DNA from: Octopus vulgaris
Taxonomy: Eukaryota
Reading direction: 5' to 3'
Length of the DNA stretch: 64,000 nucleotides
NCBI GenBank assembly: GCA_951406725.2
Contig: OX597815.1
Location: forward strand, 39,866,001 to 39,930,000
In this document: positions 24,791 through 50,960 of the stretch, one piece after another
Layout of the letters: each line of letters begins with the position of its first letter
Numbering within the stretch: position 1 is the first letter of the stretch
The notes under the pieces: generated by a model
What the model was told of the DNA's origin: nothing
The model's input: only the letters and a program-made list of their open reading frames with translations
Database searches by the model: none
Translations under genes and position numbers: made by a program

Positions 24791-24819
24791 TTATTGTTTA
24801 AATTATTTATTATTGACAG

Positions 24820-25072
24820 CTACCTAAAACTGAATTATTTGAAGAGCAGAAATCCAAATCTGAAAGTTTTGCTGGCAGTCGGCGGATGGAGTGTTGGATC
24901 GAAACCTTTCACTGAAGTTTCTTCACATAGTTCAAACAGAAGAGAATTTGCACATAATGCGATCCAATTTCTACGCCTATTCAAGTTTGATGGTCTAGAC
25001 TTCCATTGGATGTACCCGACATCGAAAGGTAGTCCTGCAGGAGATAAATACGAATTCGCTGAGCTTATTGCG
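24820..25072 (+). CDS. GH18 chitinase-like protein, coding exon 3 (altered catalytic motif)
   Basis: gacag acceptor. YLKLNYLKSRNPNLKVLLAVGGW...FDGLDFHWMYP...AELIA. Donor GTAAAA at 25073, phase 0. Confidence 0.95.
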
Positions 25073-25099
25073 GTAAAATTGCTTATATTCTTATATTCT

Positions 25100-25472
25100 T
25101 TTATTTGTTTCAGTCATTTGACTGCGGCCAAGTTGGAGCACCCCTTTAGTTGAACAAATCGACCCCAGAATTTATTCTTTGTAAGCCTAGTACTTATTCT
25201 ATCGGTCTCTTTTGCCGAACCGCTAAGTTACAGGGACGTAAGCACACCAGCATCGGTTGTTAAGCGATAGTGGGGGGGGACAAACACATACACACACACA
25301 CACATATATGACGGGCTTCTTTCAGTTTCCGTCTATCAAATCCATTCACAAATCTTTGGTCGGCCCGAGGCTATAGCAGAAGACACTCACCCAAGGTACC
25401 ACACAGCGGGGCTGAACCCAGAACCATGTGGTTGGTAAGCAAGTTACTTACCACACAGCCACTCCTGTGCCT
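25100..25472 (-). mobile_element. tRNA-derived SINE (family B, CORE-like)
   Basis: Minus strand ggcacaggagtggctgtgtggtaag...gggttcagccccg...ccttgggtgagtgtctt, with A/B-box-like head. Confidence 0.8.
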
Positions 25473-25974
25473 ATATGTAAACATTTTTAATATACTTTTA
25501 CAGATTTAATTTTATGCTTTATTATCGTGATTTAAATCAGCTTTCTTTTCTTTCAAATTCAAATTTCTAATCCCGCCCAATGTTGCAAGGGAATGATTGA
25601 TTATCTTCCTTGTATTAACGGCCTTTGCCATAAAATATGCTCAGCTTTTGTATTTGTTTTGCATGATTCTTGATGTAAAATCATGTATTAAAGTAAACAT
25701 TGTCGTACTTTTGGAAGGTCTGTCTGCTGACAAAACACTCGCACTCGTATTTGCTTATTTTATTTTAATTAAACGACTGATTAATTAACTAATCAATCGA
25801 TTAAGTAAATGGTTTTTCAAAATCCTTTCGTCACACTATGGTATTATCGGTCGGTTGGTCGCCTGGCTGGTGAAAGGTTGAATTGTAAACATTAAATGAA
25901 TTAAAGTGAAAATAAATGTATAAAGTAAACTAATTAATTAACTGATAAATAAGAGGAAAAACAATACAAATATA

Positions 25975-26390
25975 TTTATTTTCAGTCATTGGACTGCAGT
26001 CACACTGGAGAAGGGCTTTGAAGAGTTTTAGTCGAAAAATCAGTCTCAGAACTTTTGGTTTTTCTTCTTAAAACCGGTATTTAATCTATAGTCTCTTCTG
26101 CCGAACCGTTAAGTAAACAAACCAACACGGGTTGTCAAGCGGGATGAGAGGCAAACAAAGACACAAAGATACCCCCCAGCATACACACACACATACACAC
26201 ATATGTATATATACATATATACACACATATGATGGGCTTTCACGTAGTTTCTACCTTTCAAATTCACTCACAAGGCATTGGTTCGGAACTATAGCAGAAG
26301 ATACTTGCCCAAGGTGCTGCGCAGTGGGACTGAACCCGAAACCACGTGTTTGTAAATCTGGCTTCTTAAACCTCACAACCATTCCTGCTC
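25975..26390 (-). mobile_element. SINE family B copy
   Basis: Collinear with 25100-25472 (ttcagtcatt...gccgaaccg...atagcagaagatacttgcccaagg...gactgaaccc). Confidence 0.8.
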
Positions 26391-26393
26391 ATA

Positions 26394-26580
<187 letters not shown>

Positions 26581-26912
26581 TCAAGTCGGCAAATATTTGG
26601 ATGGATAAATGTAAAAGTAAAAAAGGGGAAAGAAATATATGAGTAAGTAAAGTGTAATAAAGGGTATTCTAAAAATTAAATAAAAAAGTATTTGAAAGAA
26701 ATAATAAATCTCTGAACGAGGTATAAACAGTAACTGCACGACACTGTGAGGTATATTTGCCATCTCAATATGGCTAACCACTATGGCTGAGTGTTACTGT
26801 AGCTTATAGCTCCAGGAGAGTATCTCCTCCAGTTGGTGTTAGGCACACTTTCTGTGCCCTAAGGTATTTGCAAAGGGAGGTCATCCTTCCCTCGTCAACC
26901 TAAGTGATACGC

Positions 26913-26951
26913 ACGGACTGCAGTTTCTAGGTATTGACCTGTCATCAGCGT
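26913..26951 (-). ncRNA. Minimal type I hammerhead ribozyme motif with intact core
   Basis: Minus strand acg-CTGATGA-c-aggt-caat-acct-a-GAAA-ctgcag-TC-cgt. Palindromic stem III ACTGCAGT and GUC cleavage triplet; C.A at 10.1/11.1. Confidence 0.65.
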
Positions 26952-28160
26952 TCGACAATCACCGGTTTTCGATGAAAGGGGTCCCAATGCAAATACTTAT
27001 ATCACTTTTCCAGTAACTTTTCGTCACTGATCTCTATTTGAAAGAGCTATCTGGTTAGTTGTAGACAATGGCCATCAGAGAGGATGAAGCCAAGGAAGAA
27101 CCCATGTCTGATGGGTCGTGTGCTTTAATTTATTAGTGTATGTTTGAAGGGCTACTGTTAATTGGAGTCCAGTGTTTTTATTTATGGGACTATGTTTTGA
27201 AGACTTGCTTTTAATTGGTATCAAGAATTGCTGTCGTATTAGAAAGTTAAGCGCATAATAGAAAGGGAAATTTAGCGTTATGGCTGGTTTTGCAACAAAT
27301 ATTCTGTATAGAGAACTGCTCCGCAACCCAAATAAATTTCTTTAGTGCAGGTTGATGAATAGGATCGAATAGTAAATGAATAACTTATAAACAAAATAAA
27401 AAGTGCATAAAAACTAAATGAAGAAGTAATAATTTCAAGCTTAAATCTAATAAAAAAATTTAATATATTGGTGGGTAAATTTAGAATAGTTCAAAGCTGA
27501 AAAGGTAGATTTTTAAGATGCACGATATAAAAGAATCAAAATGACAGCGTTTGTATCTCTAGTAACAGTGGCAGTAGAACTATCGCTTTATAAGGTGATG
27601 ATCGAGTAGACTTGTTACCGAACTGGAAAGGATATATAACGGCATTTCTTCCAGCTCTTTACATATTGAGTCCACTGCCCAAGTCCACTTTGCCTTTCAT
27701 CCTTTCGGGTCGATAAAATACGTACTAGTTGAGCACAGAGATGATGTAATCTATTTCATCTTTCCATTAAAATTGCTGAACTTGAAATAAAATGTCAAAC
27801 CACTGTATGTTTTCAATGAATAAAAAATATTAGAATATACGGTGATAGAAAAAAAAAGACCACCTGAAAATTCCTTTTCTTATTGAAGCAACCCATTTCA
27901 TGAATTTGAATAAGCTAAAGGTTATCCGCAGAAAATTCACAGGTGATAAATGGTTTGTTTAATAGCTCATTTTTCTAGTAATATATATACAATTGAGAAA
28001 TTGGTTAAATTTATTGAAGCATAGGGGAAGTATCAGAGTGACCCATTGTCTGGAGAGTGAAACAGAGGTGGAGAAAGAGAAAGATCGAGAGAGAAGTGGA
28101 GATACACTCTCAATTATATCGTAAGTTATATAATTTACTATTTTATTTGTTAACCAATAG

Positions 28161-28285
28161 GAAACAAGAAAAGCATTTGAATTTGAAGCAACAACTACTG
28201 GGAAAGCTCGCCTTCTGTTATCAGCTGCTGTAGCTTCCGATAAAAATATCATAGATTCGGCCTATGATTTTCCTATACTTAGCGC
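28161..28285 (+). CDS. GH18 chitinase-like protein, coding exon 4
   Basis: aatag acceptor. ETRKAFEFEATTTGKARLLLSAAVASDKNIIDSAYDFPILS(A), containing the RLLLSAAV motif. Donor GTGAGT, phase 2. Confidence 0.93.
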
Positions 28286-28690
28286 GTGAGTTAATGGATG
28301 CTTTATGTATCAATTGTTTTCACAAATGTTTGCTGAGAGAAATAACATATATGTTATGGGTAGGTGACAACTAATAATGAAAAAAAAAAACAATAGATTT
28401 TTGTGCACATTTACACACATACATACACATACACACATTAGCACTAAAAAAATTATTAATTGCCTAGAATTTAATATATTTAATGCTGTCTCCTCAGAAA
28501 TTATAGAAATGAACTATTATTAAAAATCATTGTTGATGAATCAACAGGAAACAAGGGTATGTTATACTCGTTGAAATTCAAATATGAATATGTTTTACTC
28601 TTTTTGTTTCTAGATTACATAATAAGTTAAAGTTTCTTTTGATATCGAAGAAACGGATAACTTTATCAGATATGATCATTTCTTGTCTTT

Positions 28691-29120
28691 AAGGCGAGAA
28701 GCCGGCAGAATCGTTAGCACGCCAGGCAAAATGCTTAGCGGCATTTCGTCCGTTTTATGTTTTGAGTTAAAATTCCACCGAGGTCGACTTAGCCTTTCAT
28801 CTTTTCGTGATCGATAAAATAGGCACCCGTTGAGCACTGGGGTCGATGTAATCGACTTATCCCCTTCCCTTTCTGGTTTTGTGCCAAAATTTTAAATCAT
28901 AATTTCTCGTCTATAAGACGGCAATCGTTCGAGGGTCGGAAAATGCTTTACGGTATTTGTTCCGGTTTTTTTATGCTCTTAGTTCAATCTCCACCCAGGT
29001 CAGTTTTGCTTTAATGCCTTCGGTGTCGATAAAATAAAACAGCAGTCAAGTAATGGAGACTGTGAGTTCGACTAAACACACTCCCTTCAAGACTGCTGCT
29101 TTTGTGCCTAAATCAGAGAC
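28691..29120 (+). mobile_element. Two tandem SINE family A copies
   Basis: aaggcgagaagccggcagaatcgttagcacgcc... (28691-~28895) and a more decayed copy (~28915-29120). Confidence 0.75.
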
Positions 29121-29409
29121 AATAATTATTCCTGATGCAAAAGGAATAGCCTTTTTTTTATTATAAGGTTTTGATATTGACATGTTCTCTTGTGACGTGT
29201 TGCAGTGGAGAAATGATTTGTTGATAGACTGCTAAAGAGCAGAATGGCATTCTAGTTCTCTAATGTGTTGATATTGTTTACTTCTATGTAATAACGTGTT
29301 GTAAGTTATAGTTAGGTTTTGTGTCAGAACACTATTTTAATGTTCTAGTTTTAATGTTTGTGATCTAGAAATTAATTTCACAACTTTTAATTTTTTACAT
29401 AAACGACAG

Positions 29410-29533
29410 AAACTTGGATTTTATCACAGTGCTGACTTATGACTTTCATGGTGCCTGGGAGAAGAAAACGGGTCATAATTCCCCTTTGTTTCAACAATTC
29501 GGTGAGAAACCTCCAGAGTCCTATTCAAATGTG
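29410..29533 (+). CDS. GH18 chitinase-like protein, coding exon 5
   Basis: gacag acceptor. [27 protein letters not shown]...YSNV, containing the YDFHGxW motif. Donor GTAAGT, phase 0. Confidence 0.95.
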
Positions 29534-29571
29534 GTAAGTATATTATTATTTACTCGTCTAAAGCTCCTCAA

Positions 29572-30366
29572 TCTATCTATGTATATATTAGCAGATGTCT
29601 GTGTTTGTATGTCTATGCATAATGCCAATGAGGGAGTGAGAGGGGAGAGAAAGAAACAGAGAAGCAAAGTGAGGAAGTGGCTTTTTCCTTCTCCTCCATC
29701 TCCACATTCGTCACAACGTTTTTCGATAGAGGGAGATATGTAAATAGTGTAAGTGTGTGAGTGAGTTAGAAAGAGAGAGACAGAGAGAGAGACAGGGAGA
29801 GAGACAGAGAGAAAGAAACAGAAATAGATTAAATATGTGTGAGCGAGAGAAACACAGAATGAGAATAAGATAGAGAGAAAGAAAGAAACACAGAGAGAAA
29901 ACAAGTTTCTATAGAAGTTGAAAGAGAGAGGGATAGCGAAAGAGAGAGAGAGAGAGAGAGAGACGAAGGTAGCCAGAGTAAGGTCACTAGAAGCCGCTGC
30001 ACAACGATAGCAAAGACATGTGTTTGTAATCAGGCCGAAGGAGATCTGCCGCACGCAGGGCCAATGAGTTACAAGAGGCACGGGAAAAACGGTTAGAACA
30101 ATTACGCCAACAAAATGCAATCCGTAAGAGCCAAGAGTAAAAAAAAGGAAAGAGAAAAACGTTTAAAGAATGCAAGACAAAGACAAGCTGTCAGAGTTGC
30201 CAATGAGACAATAGGTCAGCGAGAGATAAGACAAAGAAATCCTCAGAGGAAAGGGATAAACGTCTTTATCAAGATAGGCTAAATACGTTTGTCAAAAGAG
30301 TTCCACCTTCAACATATGTGATAGAATTTATCTCCCTTCTTAAAAGTGGTAAATTTTGTATTTTCG

Positions 30367-30438
<72 letters not shown>

Positions 30439-30590
30439 GTATTATGAATTAAGAATTGATTTCATCATGTATCCCAAATGAAGAATATATTGAATTTAGA
30501 ATAACAAATTCCTATACAACATATTTTGCTTTTTCTTCTAATATATAAGGAACGATTTCATTCTCAGGCAACGCTGGGTGCCTCTGCTAG
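29572..30590 (+). mobile_element. Helitron-like element with STPR-like repeat remnant in intron 5
   Basis: A|TCTATCTATGTATATA... 5' end and caggcaacgctggg...CTAG|T 3' end. 29965-30290 translates (with stops) RRANELQEAREKRLEQLRQQ...EREKRLKNARQRQAVRVANETIGQREIR. Confidence 0.6.
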
Positions 30591-31796
30591 TTTATATATG
30601 TATAAACATATTCCATATGTGTAAATTATTCATTATAGTATATAATCGTTCGAGATATTTATCTAGGTATTTTTCTGACAATGGTCGAAATAATAATTAC
30701 CAAAAAAATGGCAAGTTTCTTTCTCTCAGAGAGGTTTGCAAGGAATAAGGTACTGTATGTATGTCTGTGTGTAATTATGCACATAATTATAACTCGCTGG
30801 TACATATTAGCAATAATACCTCAACAGTGAACATAATCAGCTTATTGATTTAATACATATGATACCAGTCACCTTTCTTATTCCATTTAAAGTTTCAGCT
30901 TTTGTTAAATCCGAATGTTAAGATGGAACTATTGCCAGATTACAAACACTGTACCAATCAGATGTTTTAATGAGACATATAATTTCCCGAGCATCTGCCT
31001 GAAGCATATTCTACGAAAGAGGCAGACTGAACGGGTTTCCCTATAGCCTCGTCGTTTTTTTGTTTTTTTGTTTATCTTTTTCTTTTCAGAAAACAAAATA
31101 TATTGCTGCCTCTAATTCTTTAAAGTTTTCTTGTTCATGCAAAGCCTTTCCTGATTGCTTGGCACTGATGAATAGGCAACTATCGCAAATATCGGTATTA
31201 ATAAATGTAGGACATATGCAATTTTAACCACTAATATTAAATACCCTTGCAAACCATTGCTGAAAATATTTAAGTTAATCTTTGCAAACAGGATTCAGTA
31301 AGACGTTTCATGATAAAGTAATAAATGTTGTTTAGCCAACAGTCAATATTAATCAAATAGAACTACGATAGGAGGGGCTCCAGCTAAAAACATTTCATTT
31401 GTTTGCATATCTAGAATAACACTCCCCAGTGTCTCCTTTATTTTCTAAGATAGTAAGGAGCATTTTGAGGGAGATTTCACTGCTATTTCTAGCAAGTTAT
31501 TTGCTTGACATGAAAGTAGTAACCTACACAAGTCAAAAATACAAGCAACATGCAACTGTAGCGACCAGTTACAGAATAGGTAAACGGATTCGAAACCGAA
31601 TCCACATTTCTCAATATTGTCAAGCAAATCTTAACCTATTGTTTTCTGGTCTCTGCGCTCATACACAGCTATAAAGTGAATAACGTTGATTTTATCGCAA
31701 TTAATGTGCTGAATTAAATGATTTAATTGTAAGGAAATTAGAAGCAACCTTTTAAAAAATACTACTTCATTTTCCTGTATTGCCGTTGTGTCACAG

Positions 31797-31982
31797 CAAT
31801 TTGCTGCTAGGTACTGGACTTCCAAGGGTATCCCAGCAAGTAAATTAAACATAGGCATTCCTACGTTTGGACGTGGTTTTACGCTTGCACACAGAATGGT
31901 CACCGGTCCGTCTGCCCCAGCAGTTGGTCCGTCTCCAGCTGGAATTTATACGAGAGAGCCTGGCTATCTTGCTTATTATGAG
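31797..31982 (+). CDS. GH18 chitinase-like protein, coding exon 6
   Basis: tcacag acceptor. QFAARYWTSKGIPASKLNIGIPTFGRGFTL...TREPGYLAYYE. Donor GTAAGT, phase 0. Confidence 0.95.
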
Positions 31983-34161
31983 GTAAGTTACACACCATTT
32001 CATAACTGCATGTCCGCTCGAATATGCGAAAGTATTGTATACATTTTCTTACATTCAGTTGTGTGTGTGTGTGTGTGTGTGCGTGTGTGCACACGTGCCC
32101 GCATGCGTAAGAGAGAGAGAGAGAGAATTTCTTTTTTACACGCTCCTGCACACCAGAATGAGAAAATGTGTCCGCTGCGGAATTATATAGAGAAAAGATT
32201 TTGTCCTTAGATTTCGTGTAAAATTGCATAAAACCGAGCTCCAGGTGATGTAATATATACATATATATATATATATATATACACAAACATACATGCATGC
32301 ATATAGATATACATACATACATACATACATACATACATACATACATACATACATACATACATGCATACTTACATGTGTGTTAGTGATTAATGCCGCATGA
32401 AGCAACTATGGATAAAATATTGTCGTATAAAGTCATGTTTGACACATTCGATTGCATCAGTCGTGATAAGACCAAATGCTGCAAGAACTGTCGCGGGAGA
32501 AACTTCTCCACTTAGACTTGTGAAAACAAACATTTTATTTTGGAGATATGAATGACATCATTAGATCATAGGATGCATGCGTATCTGCGTCGTTTCGCTC
32601 TTCAGGTATTAAAACTAACTCTTATCGCTCACAGCCCAAAAAGTATGAAGTTATATTTCTGAAAACAATATTCAAATTATCGGCTGATGTGCGATTAGTC
32701 TTGTGCGGCCGGAATTAATTAGTGTCACACGAAGCGGTGCGGCTTATGATTGATATATCAGGAAAGATTTCTTAACTTCAAATGCTCTTCAAGCTAAGGA
32801 GGAGAAGAAATTAAATATATCACGAGTCGTTCGAATTTCTTAAAGTACGATTTCAAATGAAAGGAAGACACATTAAGCAATTTCTCCTGAAACATTTCGG
32901 TATACTGTGTTCATTAAAAATAAGAGATATGTAAGTCTTTTTTTTTTTTTTACCAAGGAGCTGAATACAGTAATTGAAAATATGAAACTAAAGTTAGCAG
33001 ATTGTGGTAACATAAAATGAAGTAATAATCAGTCCTCAAATAGCTAACAATAAAATTCACGAACAGATAAATATTCTTGGTATATTGATGAAGTGTTTAT
33101 TCCCTGTTAAAGTAGCCGAAGGAACATCATACCAATTCTTTAAACAAGTTACCATAACATTTTTTTATAATGATGTCCGCGATTATACAGAAAGTGTTGC
33201 CTGAAATTGTCATAATGATTATATTTCAACAGTAGTACAAAGGGCTTAGGATATCATTAAAACCACTGCTCTGAGTTCTGAAAAGATAGAAAAGGGATTT
33301 TTCTGTAATGAAAATCAACACCGCGAAGTTAAAATATAGCAAATCTTTTGATAAATAATTTGATGGCTCTTTCACTGAGTTTGTATGATTATACACGTTC
33401 CGTTCAAATGTGACTTAGAAAAAGCCATTCAGCTGATGACAGAAGATTTAAATATACAACTGATAATACATATGATGGTAATTAGTTTTCAATACGGAAA
33501 TATCTGAAACATGAAAGAAAATATAATTATCAACTACATATTTGTCATAGCAATTCCATAGATAAAAAAAGTATATATTGGAAAGTTTTACATATTTTTA
33601 CTATTCTAGTGATGGCTTGAGTCTGTACTTCTTGAATCAGCTTTTTCCTTTCTGGTTTTGAAAAAAAGCCCAATTTCTCAAGATTGGCATTCAGGCAGTG
33701 GGATACATATCCCAGCGCCTTAACTTGTAATCAGGATAGAGTAACTGCAGATTTCTCAATAGTTCAGTATAGGTATGTATGATTTAGCTTTATGTATATG
33801 TGTGTGTGTGTGTGTATGTGTGTATTATGATATGCTAGATTACTCTTAGTGCTAATGGTAATGTGTAGCACGCACAGATATCACAAACTCTTTAATAAAA
33901 TAACATTGAATGTTAGCTCCAGTTTTACTGAAAAACTTGCAACTTCAGTATCGATGATCAACAGAAGAAACTATACAAATAGACACAAACAGGTCTGAGC
34001 CCCAAGTCTTTGTCACTGTAATATCACTCTTCCATCAATAAAAGTCCCTTGATAAAAGCGTCTTCATCGATAAACAGAGAGAATAAAAATGACATAGACA
34101 AACAGACAAATATTGGATAATTTAATAGACATACACGCGCGCACGTGCGTGCGTACATGCA

Positions 34162-35397: not shown

Positions 35398-36687
35398 CGA
35401 GGGACGTTCAATAAGTAATGCCTCTGACCCATTTGCATTTGTTTGATCTAGCTGAAATTTTGCATGTGCAATCATTTATATCTCTATAGAGTAAGTGGCA
35501 AATTACAGCTCTGAATTAATTGTGGTTTCTGATTTACAGGTGTTTGAACCGAGTCAAGTGTGAAATGGAGCCTGTTGAGTGTCGAGCAGTGATCCGGTTT
35601 TTGTATTTGAAAGGACGCACACCACGGGAGACTTTTGATGAAATGAAAGTAACTTATGGTGATGATGCCCCATCATATGACCTTGTAAAACGCTGGCATC
35701 GTGAATTCAAACATGGTCAGAACTCTGTGGAAACAGCTCCCAGATCTGGTCGCCCCTTCTGCCATTGATGAGGCATCTGTCCGTCAAGTTGAGGCTGCCA
35801 TTTTGGAAGATCGACGCATAATTATTCGCCAAATAGTCCATGAGGTCAAGATTAGTACCGGGTCTGTGGAAACTATCGTTCATGACCATTTGCATATGCA
35901 AAAGGTGTCTGCCAGATAGATTCCCAGGTTGCTCACGCCTTTACAGAAGCAAGAACGCGTCGAGTTCTCGAGGGTGAATTTGGAGATGTGCCAAGAAGAT
36001 GAGTCAAAAGTTTTCAAAAGACTGATTACACAGGATGAAACCTGGGTCCATCACGATGATCCAGAGACCAAAGCCCAGTCAATGCAGTGGAAGCACTGTG
36101 ACTCACCCCCTCCAAAGAAGGCAAGGGTGCAGCCCTCCGCTGGCAAGGTCATGCTCACAGTCTTCTGGGACCAGGACGGAGTAGTGATGACAGATTTCTT
36201 GGCAAAGGGTACCACAATTGCAGGAGCCTATTATGCTTCACTTTTGAGGAAATTAAGAGAAGTTATCAAAATCAAGAGGCGGGGCAAGATCAGCAAAGGC
36301 ATCCTCCTCCTGCAGGACAACGCTCCGATCCACAACTCGTTTGTCGCCAGATCAGAAGCACAGGCGTGCGGCTATGAACTCCTCGCCCATCCCCCTACTT
36401 TCCTGACCGTGCACCCTCTGATTTTCACCTCTTCCCAGTCATGAAGTTGTTTTTGAAAGGAAAGCGTTTCCAAGATGATGCAGCCTTGATTTCTGAAGTC
36501 ACGTTCAGGTTGGAGGACCAAGCTGGGGTCTTCTACAAAAACGGTCTCCAGAGCTGCATCAAACAATGGGAGAAATGCGTAACTCTGGGTGGTTCCTATA
36601 TAGAAAAAGACTAATAACTGTGCCAAGTTTCGTTGCTCTACTGCTATGGGAAGTGGGTCAGGGGCATTACTTATTGAACGCCCCTCG
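35398..36687 (+). mobile_element. Full-length (1290 bp) defective mariner element; transposase pseudogene 35565-36614
   Basis: TIRs cgagggacgttcaataagtaatgcc / ggcattacttattgaacgcccctcg with TA flanks. MEPVECRAVIRFL...ITQDETWVH...LLQDNAPIH. Frameshifts near 35760 and 36400, and a stop at 35917. Confidence 0.95.
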
Positions 36688-44859: not shown

Positions 44860-47800
44860 GGTGGAGCTAAAAAAGCATTTTTTACATAGGTTTTCAAAAT
44901 AAGTTTTTAATTTTGAATAATGCGCGAAAAATCAATTTACAAGACGTTTGCCGTTCCCTATTTTATTTTTTACATTCATTATTACAAATCGATTTTCTTT
45001 TGCGAAATCTTTTACAAATAAGAATGTTCAAATCTCATGCTCTCAAATTTATGTCTGTAGGCTCCGCAACGCATTTGAAATTTCGAAATGATTTGAAATA
45101 AATTGACTTTTCGACTTTGCTTTCTTTATTATTTTTAATACTAGGTCACCGAATATATGTGCCACATGAGGTCTAGATTACATACACATTAAAATAAAAT
45201 TGGTGAAAACTAATTTTTAATTCGTGACACATTTTGGTGAGGAAAATAATTAACATTTCCTACTTATTCGAAATAATTCAATGTAACTAAATAATGCGAA
45301 TCGTTGTAGTGCCAGCAATAAAACCAATTAATTTTTTTCGTAGACAAGAATTACCATCTCACTCTCGAATAAAGAATGAAGCACACAAAGATTTGTTGTT
45401 TTGAAAATTTCTGAAACGACATAATGCTAATTGCTTGCTCAATTATTGTTCAAAATAGCTAAAACTAAACAACTCTGATTATTGCTATATTACCATTCAA
45501 TTTCAATTTACCATTCAATTTTTTTTTTTATCTCGAACACCTGAATCTTTTCTCTTGATTCGATTCGACTCCTAATGAAACCGTCTCGACTGCTCTCACC
45601 ACAAACATTAGATGATGCTTCTATCACGAATTTTACACATCTCTCCAAAGCTTGGGTGTGGCACGGTAATTTTTTCCATTTGCGTCAAATGCCGTTGAAG
45701 ACTAATGGATATTGAGAAGGTATTTTTGATCAATGCTGAGATCGTTTCTATCTACTGACGGTAAGACCGTTAGAATCTGATTAAATTTCACAACACTTAG
45801 TTGTTTCACATCATTCCATTCTCTTACCAATCGGCTCAAGAAATCCACGAGGCCTGGTAGTTTTTCCGTCGAGATCGTTAATAAGATGGCGTAAGGGAAG
45901 CTCTTTTGCGTGGAACTGAGACACAAACCAATGCAATAGTTTCTTAAATTTATCTGCCAAAAGTCTAATGGTGCCTCCTTTTGGTCCTGTATTGACAGCA
46001 GTACCTTCGCAACCTACAGCTATCATGTGATTGGCTACTATACCATTGGTTTCCAAATAATTCAACAAACCATCGGAAATGGCTTTTGCAGAACCCTTTT
46101 TAACAGTAAAGTGCCCAAGATAGCGATACTCAGGCTCTTCTTCATTATGACCATATATTTCGTCGTGTTACGTGACTGGTCCAAACGGCGTACATCGCCG
46201 AACACCACAGTGGGGACAAAAAACAAAACGAATAGAAAATGGAAAAGTGTACAATGAAATCAATGGTGATGAAATGGCTGCATGCACCCCACTCAGATGA
46301 AGCACCATTTGAGGTTCTTACTTTCAGTTTGTAATCTTTTTCTTTTTCCTTATTTTTTCACTATAAGCATCATTTTGTTTACTCTTTTTCCTTTCTTTTT
46401 TTAAACCATTTTACTCTCTTTTTTTTTTAATATCTGATGTAAGAATCTAGTTCACTTAGTTCTACTACTGGCGGCAGTTCATCGAACTCCACCACGAATC
46501 CCGGCTGCTCAATTTGACACTTTTCCTTCAACTTTTTATATTTTTCTTTGTCGATTAGAAAAGCTTTTACGTTTTCACCGTATATCTCCTTGGTCAACTT
46601 AACCCTTATAACGGATTTAAGCTTGGTTATCGCTCTTTCGGTATATATGCTTTTAGCATATGTCACGAAATTCCAGCTATATTTTCTTTGTCTTCTTGCT
46701 TGTTTGTCATGTGCCACTCTAGGCGCCACTTCCCGCACTCCGGCCAGTGTCGCTGCTTCCTCCCCTTGCCGTCTGAAAAGGTTATCCAGCATACCTGCTT
46801 CCATCTCCCCTCCTCTACAACCCGCCTTCCAACCTCCCTACCACCTCCCTTTCGACCTCCATTTCAACGACCTTCCCCTCATCCACCTTCACGACCTCCC
46901 TCTCCACCTCCTCCTCTACCTCCTCCTTCTTCCGACTCTTCGGCAGAGGTCCCACTCCTTCCCCTCTCGCTCCTTCACCACTTCAAACTCCACCTCCACT
47001 CCTGCTGTCTCCCTCTCCTGCTCCTCAGCCCGTTCCACCCGCTGCTCCTTCTCCTCCCTCTGGGGCACCCCGCTCCCATGTGGCCCCTGCTACACCACCA
47101 CTGCCTTCAATCTCACATTCTCGGGCAACACTACCTCTTCTGGAATCCCGCTCATGCCACTCACAGTCGTCCGGACCGCCATCTCGATTCCGCACCCCCA
47201 CTAGTTCACCTTTCTCGTTCCCGCAACTCTCAGGACCCTCGCCCCCTCCTCCATGCAGCAACCAACCATGCTTCATCCAATCCCGGTGGCAACCCCACAA
47301 CCACCCCACTCCGACAATCCGCCCGTCACAGCACATTGGTAGGAGCACCCACTCCTTCTTCCCCATGGCATCAGTGGAGCGCTCCATCACCTCCCCTCGC
47401 TCGCAATTCGCACCTCCACCGCGCCACATCTTTCCCTTCCCACCACAAACGGGGTAACCCCCCTGACCTCCCTCAAACACCTTTCAATGTCAATAAAATC
47501 TCTTGTTGCATTGTTTTTAAACATATTGCACTTTGTTTGAAACGATGGCACATTTTTTTCTAGTTTTCACAGAATTTAACAATGCTTGGTACTTTAGATA
47601 AATGCTTAAGATTTTCGGTTTAACTGACTCAGTCGTAATACAAGGGATGGATGCCTTTTGCCAAAGAAGAATTATCTTTTCTGCTACAATCTTGACAATT
47701 TGTTTAATTGAAGGATCTTTCTTAACTACATTCTTTTCTTTTTCTCCTTCAAATAAAACATATTTTAGTACGTCCTTGTAAGTTGGCAAAACATGCTCGC

Positions 47801-48316
47801 TAAGATTACATGGAGAACCAAACATTGGGCATTCAGTATCATGACGCGTTATTGGCTTGTGGATCATCACTAAATGTAAACAACACTAAATTTAACACGA
47901 TCATTAATCTTAATACAATGGCCTAAAGTCAAGGTACAAAGCAGAAAACTTCACACACGTACGACGTACGCCCACACGCAACGACCGTTGCAGCGGCATT
48001 GGAGAGAAGTTCAGACTCCCGTTCTCTTTTATAGTCAATGCGGAACCTCAAGATATTGGTCAATTTTATTGAAACCTCTTAAGGATACTATATTTACTGT
48101 TTTGCATTCTGCTATGAAGAAATATGTCTTCGTTACGACTTATAATCCATAAAATTCGACCATAAATTGCGACTTTTAAAATTTTCAATTGCGTTGTAGA
48201 ACCTAAAAAGATATTTCACCCATAAAGTTCTTTATACACCTTTCTTTTAACCCTAATTCGCAACAAAATATCGATTCTTGGTTACCAGTTCCGAAAGTTG
48301 CATTTTTCGCTCCACC
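44860..48316 (-). mobile_element. Internally deleted hAT-like DNA transposon (hATx/hATw-type, tentative)
   Basis: Imperfect TIR ggtggagctaaaaaagc / gcatttttcgctccacc (15/17). Transposase pieces LPTYKDVL...WQKASIP (47870-47517), GCEGTAVNTG...HAKELPLRHL (46068-45811) and CHTQALERCVK (~45660-45560). Exact ends uncertain. Confidence 0.7.
46190..47480 (-). mobile_element. Non-LTR retrotransposon ORF1-like insert (G-rich 5' part) nested in the hAT-like element
   Basis: Broken frames give RERCGAVEVR...RST...WVLLP...GLPPG, a zinc-knuckle remnant RGHMGAGCP and a C-terminal domain ending FDELPPVVELSELDSYIRY* (46427). Homologous to 49600-50960. Confidence 0.7.
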
Positions 48317-49341
48317 ATACTGTACACTGTATCTGACTCCAAACAACTCCCCACCAAACAAACGTCATTCATTTTTTATCAAGTTAAATAGAATTATTTC
48401 ATAGTTCAACGTGTGATGTTTCATTCGAATGGTTTACTTGAAATTCGTAGCTGGAAGTGAGAAGTGTAAAACTATCGACTAAACTGTAGTTCTAGATACA
48501 CAACCTTGTGCACATTTGAATACCAGAATACACACATTTATATGAGTATACGCTATATTTTTATGTTCATTTACATTTTCTTCATAAACATTTCATACCA
48601 TTTTACTACTTCATTATTTACTTAAATGTCTCTTTCCCCCACCTTCTCTCTCCCTCTTCTCTCACTGCTTTTTTTCTCCTTCCTATTGGCGCCAAACATG
48701 ATTCCACTTTCACTAAATGGCAAAGTGAAGAAGTTCACGAATAACTTCTGTATCAGTCACTATCTTCTACCAACTTGTCGGTAACGTCAGCTGCTTCAGT
48801 AGTATTGGTTGTAACAACAAAAACGATGACAATTATATAAAGCTAGCAGCAATACTAATTGAACGTAAACGAAGCTGTGAATATGAAGTACAATATGTCA
48901 TAGACTATTACGATCCTTTTATGGCAGGTGACACAGGAAAGATGAGGTCAGACGAAGAATGAAATATTATCTGACAACGAAAACACACGAAGAGACACGT
49001 GAGCAGAATAAATCTTTCAAGAAAGTGGACAAACATTTCATTTTACATTTAAATAAATAAACTAAAATTATATATATACAAAAACTATAAATACACTAAT
49101 ATAGGAACGACATGTGAAATAATATGGTCATTATGTGAAATGAAGAAAAGCTGAAGAACAGACAAGAACGCTTGGTTTCAAGCAGAAAAAAATGGTATGT
49201 CAAACGGACATGAAGGTATTGTACAATCCTATGAAAGGAACTGGTTGAGAAAAAAAGTTAAAAAAAAACACTAAATGTGCCAGTATAAAAATCATATGTA
49301 ACTATAGAGTCATATGTAATATTCAATACTGACTCGATTTA

Positions 49342-49599: not shown

Positions 49600-50960
49600 T
49601 TTACTTAATCTACAAAATAAAGACCTAAATCCTCATATGCTGTCACCGGGGGCAGGATTTCAAACCTCACCCTCTCTCCTACTAGTTGTACATCAGTTTT
49701 GTAGTATTTTTGTAATGTTTAGAATCTTGGTGTATCTATCCCAATGCACTTTGTTTCAGGTGGGTGGATATTGGAAAGTCTAACCCGAGTGATATTTTAA
49801 AATTTATTGATAGTTTTCTCTATGGCTTTACTAGTTTTGTAAGACATTAAATAAGCAGTTTGCTTTGTCGGGGTTTGTGTGTCTGTAGGTGTCTGCTTGA
49901 TGGGAGATTCTGGGCTGTTTGGGGGGAAGGGGTATGTTAACAGTGGTGTGTGCTGTGTGGGTGTGTTATTTTCTGAAGTTGTCTGTAATTTTTCTGTTTG
50001 GTGTGTATGACTGTTTTTCTTTTTTGTGTGCATTTTGGTGATGAATTATTTCTTTCTCTCTTTCTTGTAACTTTGTTTCATCTCAATTGCATCTTGGTTT
50101 CCTTCCGCTGCTTTCGCTGTGTTCTCAGGCTCAGACATGATCTCCGCTGCTTTTTCCTGTTCGTTTTCGTTTTGGGGGCACTTCTTTTTGATGTACCCCT
50201 TCTGGCCGCATCTACTGTAACAGTTTTTTTTTCCTCGGGTAGCTCAATAACTTCTGGGACCTCGCTTAAATCTGCTTCGGTGGCCTGGACAATTAATTCC
50301 AGGCCGTAATCCCATCAATTCAGTTGTTGTGTCCGGGTTACCTGCACAATCAATGGGTCTCATTCCGGTGGAATCCCGCCAATCCTTACGCTAGAGACTC
50401 TTTTCCCTAGGTAGGTTGGCAGGAGCAGCCAAGTTCTTACTAGTACAGTGGAGTGCTTATCTGCCAACTCTACGGAGGGAAATCTTAACTCCACTGTACC
50501 GTATTTCCTACCTCGGGAGTAGTAGGAAATGTCCTTTCTAATGGTATCTAAGCATTTCTCAATGGCCTCATCTGGAGCCATTTCGATCTTTTTTCCAGCT
50601 AGGTATAGGGTCTTGTAGATTATTGTTCTTTTGGCATTTGCGATTAAATCATCTAGAGGGATTAATTTTACTTTCGCCCCTTCCTTTCCTGCACATTCCA
50701 TACATTCATACAATTTATCGTGTGAAATAACCACTTCTCTCATATCTAACTGTGATATAGTCATATTCTGTTTTCCTGCTACCGACGCGTTGCTTCCTGT
50801 TCGTCCTTCTTCGCCTATATTAGGCACATCTGTTTCCATCCCAAACGGGAGAAAACAATAAAAAAACACAAGCTTGCTGAACAAGCTGTGTGTTTCGAAA
50901 AACAGCAACAAATTAACAATGAATCAACAATTTTAACAGTTCAATATAAACGTACATTCA
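49600..50960 (-). mobile_element. Non-LTR retrotransposon ORF1 (gag-like, CCHC) relic without visible ORF2
   Basis: ORF 50911-50360 (RGRKYGTVELRF...HST...WLLLPTYLGKR...GGIPPE), knuckle CYSRCGQKGYIKKKCP (~50220-50170) and C-terminal RVRL...ID...VRFEILPPV...Y* ending ~49606. Confidence 0.7.

Follow-up and report, generated by a model that had tools for sequence, protein, structure and literature searches.

RNA editing is usually viewed as non-heritable. A retrotransposon copy in the genome of Octopus vulgaris raises the question of whether edited RNA can nevertheless become part of germline DNA. The copy lies in a window of 64,000 nucleotides, the whole stretch analysed here (assembly GCA_951406725.2, contig OX597815.1, positions 39,866,001 to 39,930,000 of the forward strand), and a sequence-only reading had proposed that a hyper-edited transcript was reverse-transcribed and integrated at this site. 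It had started from a tract rich in C on the forward strand, and hence in G on the element's sense strand, with an A-rich continuation. This composition is confirmed: C makes up 32 of the 60 bases at 46861-46920 (+), and the minus (sense) strand contains 47% G and 23% A over 46700-47480, as against 22% G and 40% A over 46427-46690. The A-rich composition of a further copy at 49600-50960 was likewise described correctly. In window coordinates, the features are as follows.

45300..46141, minus strand: right part of the host repeat, unedited (A>G 9/262), with paralogues
46142..46199, minus strand: downstream flank of the family target unit, carried along; the target unit matches 46201-46143 (75% over 60 bp)
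46200..46733, minus strand: unedited 3' part of the tract-bearing module (ORF end and 3' UTR), A>G 1/195, or 6/203 over 46719-46142
46734..47491, minus strand: A>G-hypermutated tract in the ORF1-like part of an ORF1-only non-LTR module truncated at its 5' end, with G at 125 of 274 family A's
47486..47491, minus strand: 6-bp microhomology GACATT, common to host repeat and module, at the 5' junction
47492..48320, minus strand: host repeat (probably a DNA transposon), left part, unedited (A>G 8/280), with paralogues
49600..50960, minus strand: distant ORF1-like module, A-rich, separate from the edited copy

A search of the 2.8-Gb assembly seeded with the A-rich 3' part of the module returned 47 matches, several of which align across the whole of 46200-47491. 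We aligned the window copy with 33 other copies and took as the family base of each column the majority of at least 70% of at least five copies. Between 47491 and 46720 on the sense strand, 125 of 274 family A's are G in the window copy, against 3/105 for T>C, 19/228 for G>A and 9/89 for C>T; the predicted bounded tract, with a large sense A>G excess over T>C and G>A, is therefore present. Downstream in the same alignment (46719-46142), the window copy shows A>G at 6/203 (inside versus downstream, Fisher p 2e-29), and the 33 paralogues themselves show rates between 0.7 and 10.7%. The tract is about 760 bases long, from its last changed A at 46734 to the 5' junction at 47491. Compared pairwise with the paralogue L002, the window copy has 130 of 296 A's changed over 47491-46700, together with 15 G>A and 11 T>C differences, and A>G at 9/197 downstream. 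Ten of the 11 paralogues compared in this way cover most of the tract and give the same picture; the eleventh, L003, reaches only its 3' end. G>A in the tract amounts to 8%, the level of unedited copies, and there is no APOBEC-type cluster of sense G>A. The tract-bearing module is dead, with both frameshifting and in-frame deletions, and about 60-75 bp of its tail, including the AATAAA signal, are deleted at 46200 relative to the 3' ends of its paralogues.

For single residues, the sequence-only reading had relied on the copy at 49600-50960 and cautioned that this comparator was diverged, rightly so: it is 61% identical to a family module over 316 bp and has no informative relatives in our set. 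The two 18-mers quoted from these copies do differ at six positions, four of which are T>C on the forward strand. A lysine-to-arginine change can no longer count as a secure edit, L002 and L033 having AGA and L005 AAA at this codon. The zinc-knuckle residues GHMGAGCP exist in the window copy, but the first half of the knuckle is deleted there.

That the tract is an artefact of assembly or sequencing, for example an edited cDNA included in the assembly, has a negligible probability. Nothing but the oddity of the tract would suggest it, and it is refuted by contigs from the runs X2, X5 and X6 (three studies, with organism labels A, B and C), which carry the tract at flat depth; in each run, one contig spans the 5' junction into the host repeat. 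X2 and X6 are presumably DNA runs and the kind of X5 is unrecorded; a further run, X9 (label D), does not cover the tract. X5 and X6 each provide a single contig (884 nt and 892 nt, respectively) that shows 21 differences, and X2 provides three contigs with 5, 0 and 0 differences. None of the 19 differences listed per orthologue (of 21) returns the family A at an edited site, and two more family-A sites are G in labels B and C. Moreover, a 13-nt piece missing from the window copy exists in B and C, where it is A>G-shifted relative to the family. Given that the edited sites are G in B and C and that this piece is shifted as well, the G's predate the split of these lineages. The hypermutated copy is germline-inherited and older than the split of the organisms A, B and C, and the idea of a heritable mutagen gains support from a tract common to three organism labels. 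The proposed role in defence, like a tie to the high ADAR activity of cephalopods, stays hypothetical.

The window copy is not the only one of its kind. We screened 212 sequences from 195 distinct sites (892 kb in total) all against all, with short tandem repeats masked, and kept segments scoring at least 12; the informative sequence comprised 178.5 kb of the family and 113.6 kb of non-family repeats. Thirty segments were obtained: ten sense A>G tracts in the family, one A>G run in a TA-rich repeat, which was dropped, and 19 segments of G>A or C>T that score 12-23, lie on both strands, often follow C and are read as CpG decay or old copies. A>G/T>C matches at L046, L079 and L152 in a first screen were simple-repeat artefacts. 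The ten tracts, 127-968 nt long, are those of the window copy, L049, L117, L123, L128, L136, L139, L162, L168 and L171, so that the suggested scan for such copies yielded nine more among the 195 sites. Within the tracts, A>G rates are 25-55% over lengths of up to 970 nt. All ten are on the ORF1 sense strand (p 0.002) and sense T>C tracts number 0/10, as would be the case if the template RNA alone were preserved. Six of the nine non-window tracts came from edited queries. Among informative sites retrieved with unedited DNA or protein queries, which probably undercount edited copies, 3 of 112 carry a tract; 60 extra loci from a protein search added zero new tracts. The 113.6 kb of informative non-family repeats contained zero tracts against the three unbiased family tracts, numbers too small to establish family specificity.

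The limits of the tracts are sharp. In tandem arrays, one module only is edited, and its neighbours are unedited at L139 (A>G 6/367), L128 (4/118) and L136 (9/182); the neighbour at L168 has A>G at 55/535 but T>C at 29/263, which is plain divergence. The 3' part is unedited in all six edited copies that retain one, namely the window copy (46142-46733), L128, L136, L139, L162 and L168. Reverse transcription may require an intact tail, or an antisense partner may end short. The full-length copy L162 retains both 14-bp duplications, and its internal tract (A>G 47/168) is located between stretches with 2/322 and 3/75; a complete insertion with an internal tract links the change to one event of retroposition.

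Could the G's simply have been inherited, from a G-rich subfamily, from an edited master copy that spread, or from an ancestor that had G while the paralogues drifted to A? We consider this very unlikely and largely refuted. No genomic copy is more than 75% identical to the tract, and close paralogues keep the A's, contrary to what a GC-rich subfamily would show. Edited copies are spread over several subfamilies beside A-keeping relatives, which for each tract are mostly 6-14% away at non-A/G sites. An ancestral G is contradicted by the A's that both the distant copy and the family have at conserved residues. Changes affect 25/63, 24/62 and 28/47 of the A's at codon positions 1, 2 and 3 (p 0.06), that is, about 40% at the first two and 60% at the third; with all positions changed, the tract is unlike a subfamily evolving under selection. 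The recovery of six of the nine other tracts through edited queries would be compatible with a spreading master, as would a slight excess of edits common to the window copy and L049, which share 45 edits when 38.7 +/- 2.6 are expected from both neighbours (p 0.014). L049 is marginally the nearest relative of the window copy (0.083 vs 0.085), and the two may have some common history; neither set of edits is contained in the other (57 and 18 are private), and few other derived bases are common to both. A>G changes cannot make stop codons, and the 263-codon open frame of the edited L049 is intact, so any damage would be missense. No daughter copies of the window tract were found in the genome, which fits a copy that was dead on arrival.

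The bases next to the changed A's bear on the agent. In the window copy, A>G depends strongly on the 5' neighbour, at 18/21 (86%) after U, 64/97 (66%) after A, 19/39 (49%) after C and 21/105 (20%) after G. The ADAR context anticipated for the tract is therefore found, with G depleted at -1 (21/105 vs 101/157 for the other bases, p 8e-13) and weakly enriched at +1 (p 0.04; 57/101 before G, 14/28 before C, 14/31 before U and 37/94 before A). The ten tracts pooled have A>G at 633/1800, T>C at 27/875, G>A at 85/1374 and C>T at 77/726. Their 5' preferences recur (U 103/185 or 0.56, A 304/596 or 0.51, C 76/269 or 0.28, G 64/508 or 0.13), as does the 3' G, at 202/474 (0.43) vs 0.31-0.38 for other bases (p 4e-4). 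PF02137 (adenosine deaminase/editase), a family that includes non-ADAR relatives too, is above cut-off at four genomic loci. According to the available text on ADAR specificity, the enzyme favours 5' U and A over C and G, and the 5' base is dominant (PMC3113232); the same 5' preferences and a weak 3' G have been described across metazoans (PMC9989829), in agreement with the 3' G seen here. The depletion of 5' G also agrees with invertebrate hyper-edited reads as summarised in PMC5625713, although in that invertebrate cluster the downstream base enriched is A and not G, a mismatch with the octopus tracts.

Two explanations without RNA editing can be judged by these patterns. In the first, a burst of reverse transcriptase errors, C would have been misinserted opposite template A from a skewed dNTP pool; this would be strand-specific, happen once per insertion and need no duplex. 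We regard such a burst as highly improbable: the -1 order U>A>C>G, in which a preceding G lowers the rate four-fold, recurs in the pooled tracts and is the pattern of a deaminase, transversions from A are rare (38/1800), and the tracts have sharp limits within single cDNAs. In the second, duplex DNA mutated after insertion, by hypermutation of the TpA type or biased gene conversion, to which one might attribute that TA sites are the most changed in the window copy (18/21). Mutation of duplex DNA would require changes on both strands, yet sense TA>CA is found at 6/182; AA and CA sites are changed too, and flanks and tandem neighbours are untouched. The strand asymmetry refutes it, and its residual probability is minute.

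What kind of element was edited? The family modules measure 1.7-2.1 kb and consist of a T-rich 5' end, a single ORF that encodes a CCHC knuckle (PF00098, E 3e-5 in L004) and a 3' AATAAA with a few A's. The ORF is similar to ORF1 of abundant two-ORF LINEs (about 30-40% identity over at least 200 residues, E to 1e-54), in which an intact 1130-aa ORF2 with endonuclease, reverse transcriptase and zf-RVT domains follows the ORF1 homologue. The best solved-structure match of this ORF2 is human L1 ORF2p (E 6e-65). ORF2 (APE endonuclease and reverse transcriptase) is absent from the modules themselves and found in the autonomous relatives. The differing module ends, the AATAAA tail and the target duplication argue against an LTR element. 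Modules occupy a fixed site in a tandem unit of 520-620 bp; empty target sites have one 14-bp word, filled sites have the word on both sides (junction motifs were counted at 20 sites 5' and 27 sites 3'), and four modules, the edited L162 among them, have both duplicated flanks. The element is an ORF1-only, target-specific relative of L1/Tx1-like LINEs, and the modules work like non-autonomous passengers. The ORF1 fold model has low confidence (pLDDT 60), with matches to ferredoxin/RRM-like folds only at E 0.015 or weaker. Two ORF1 pieces searched against longer proteins gave no match, and an atlas protein search gave only weak, unnamed matches; named protein relatives of the element come from Octopus and Argonauta.

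ORF1-retaining non-autonomous LINEs seem to form a large class, an ORF1 protein search yielding 9393 first-look candidates. Head-to-tail arrays of diverged ORF1-only modules with the 14-bp duplication between them are present at L043:2100-5400, L044:2100-5300, L053, L139 and L168. A young, abundant L1/Tx1-like LINE with an intact 1132-codon ORF2 and copies 99% identical is found at L270, at L286-L288 and in many other places; it is often tandem and appears to have a target word of its own at either end, and one of its 22-mers has 248 exact matches. By eye, the 3' tail of the autonomous LINE looks similar to that of the modules. It showed no clear tract in 42 sites (139.6 kb), which were the best protein matches and thus biased to intact copies. 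A possible weak sense A>G patch in an autonomous-LINE ORF1 (L283:5610-5807, 16/60) is ambiguous, with other substitutions raised too. With exact motifs, 0 edited copies of the young LINE were found against 248 unedited matches; as a rough estimate expects only about 0.3, this zero carries no weight.

The window copy is atypical of its family, being 5'-truncated at the microhomology, without its tail, joined to about 59 bp of target flank and lacking a target-site duplication. Around it, most paralogue comparisons show about 650-670 bp of the host repeat missing at the insertion. We attribute these non-canonical junctions either to a deletion that came later or to capture of the copy at a break. 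The host repeat, probably a DNA transposon, has frames that read as transposase-like and at least 14 paralogues at 80-90% identity; a Pfam search of it gave no match. Elsewhere in the window are exons of a chitinase-like gene of glycosyl hydrolase family 18 (24800-32207, +) and a mariner-type transposase fragment (35920-36444, +; PF01359, E 3e-23).

Taken together, spectrum, strand and context support the proposal that a hyper-edited transcript was reverse-transcribed and integrated. The tract is very probably the fossil, in a non-autonomous LINE-derived copy, of element RNA that ADAR hyper-edited before its reverse transcription into the germline. An ORF1-only module would have been transcribed, and part of its RNA would have paired with antisense RNA or an inverted copy. 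ADAR, as the presumed enzyme, would then have deaminated about half of the A's in the paired patch, sparing those 3' of G, as the pattern displays. A related autonomous APE-RT LINE, the likely helper, would have provided the reverse transcriptase that read inosine as G and inserted the cDNA, a step that has left duplications in the family. The copy would have passed through the germline before the split of A, B and C, as the common contigs show, and later deletions and ordinary decay would have given it its present form. Templating in place from a locus-wide edited pre-mRNA is disfavoured, the flanks being unedited.

As for the double-stranded partner, the modules contain no long inverted repeat and the window no opposite-strand copy of the family; among ORF1-bearing loci, only 4 of 154 have matches on both strands. 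The target unit (L073, L075, L087 and L041, for example L087:1400-2000; window 46142-46199) forms several hairpins. Rfam gave no match on the module array and nothing above threshold on the target unit, its best hit there being a mir-252-like hairpin (23.7 bits, cut-off 45) on the strand opposite to the modules. If the target unit is transcribed antisense to the modules, read-through could supply antisense RNA. Sense-antisense pairing is a documented editing substrate in metazoans, according to the accessible part of PMC9989829; for human L1, the corresponding part of PMC5224506 describes over 2.5 kb of L1 RNA in cells as unedited and the restriction by ADAR1 as editing-independent.

The missing partner would be less of a difficulty if DNA had been the substrate. 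ADAR acts on RNA:DNA hybrids, and ADAR or another deaminase working during integration on the sense (second) DNA strand, single-stranded or in a hybrid, would change the same strand and, in the case of ADAR, produce a similar neighbour bias. We nevertheless hold this to be improbable: target-primed reverse transcription naturally forms a hybrid that contains the antisense cDNA, from which sense T>C is expected, and this was seen in 0/10 tracts. Rates of 25-55% over up to 970 nt would rather fit hyper-editing of long dsRNA.

The finding is real and recurrent, and inherited scars of a deaminase have a precedent in the APOBEC G>A changes of vertebrate LTR elements. Knisbacher and Levanon (PMC4866542) described, in the text available, APOBEC-edited LTR retrotransposons fixed in vertebrate genomes; their LTR screen of 123 genomes reported only APOBEC G>A, in vertebrates, with other cluster types called 'negligible' and 19 invertebrate genomes at noise level. 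The octopus tracts resemble these scars as inherited, strand-biased clusters of a single transition in single copies, gained during retrotransposition. They differ in being A>G in an ADAR context in an invertebrate non-LTR element, rather than G>A from cytidine deamination of LTR-element cDNA. ADAR A-to-G hypermutation has been reviewed for avian RAV-1 and ALV and for HTLV-2/STLV-3 in culture (PMC8586724, in part); there, too, edited RNA is reverse-transcribed and leaves A>G in the DNA copy, but these are exogenous viruses in infected cells, unlike the germline-fixed endogenous non-LTR copies common to several organism labels. With the hyper-edited RNA clusters of metazoans, as outlined in PMC5625713 and PMC9989829, the tracts have in common dense A>G, depletion of G and preference for U/A at -1 and an origin in repeats; those changes are confined to RNA and contrast with an unedited genome, whereas here they are in genomic DNA. 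In the section available, PMC2873906 likewise treats A>G clusters as RNA-only. Insertion at a fixed site in another repeat, with tandem copies sandwiching the target-site duplication, is shared with Tx1-clade elements and their non-autonomous passengers (PMC4494074, in part). In contrast to Tx1 as portrayed there, the modules keep ORF1, lack ORF2 and target a 520-620-bp tandem unit, the likeness being one of behaviour. The part of PMC9115989 on octopus LINEs that was available makes no mention of such tracts. Full-text searches, in a collection with few subscription papers, yielded no account of ADAR-type tracts fixed in non-LTR copies. The finding may be anticipated in a review by Knisbacher and Levanon that is said to deal with DNA and RNA editing of retrotransposons.

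ADAR-signature A>G patches have thus entered germline DNA repeatedly via retrotransposition in an invertebrate non-LTR family, and each edited copy is a single-molecule record of editing in a germline cell. Such copies distort the dating of repeats and can mimic RNA editing in read mapping. They also make it testable from genomes whether ADAR restricts retroelements by mutation, whether its specificity changed over time and whether the fossil load is higher in clades with high editing. Tentatively, and with slightly more doubt than conviction, we suggest a wider role: in octopods, ADAR hyper-editing may act repeatedly as a germline mutagen on LINE-type retroposition, with a few percent of family insertions arriving pre-edited. 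The genome would then preserve a large number of dated fossils that record how active and how specific ADAR was in the germline, and editing, by crippling new copies, might be the invertebrate counterpart of APOBEC3 acting on vertebrate ERVs.
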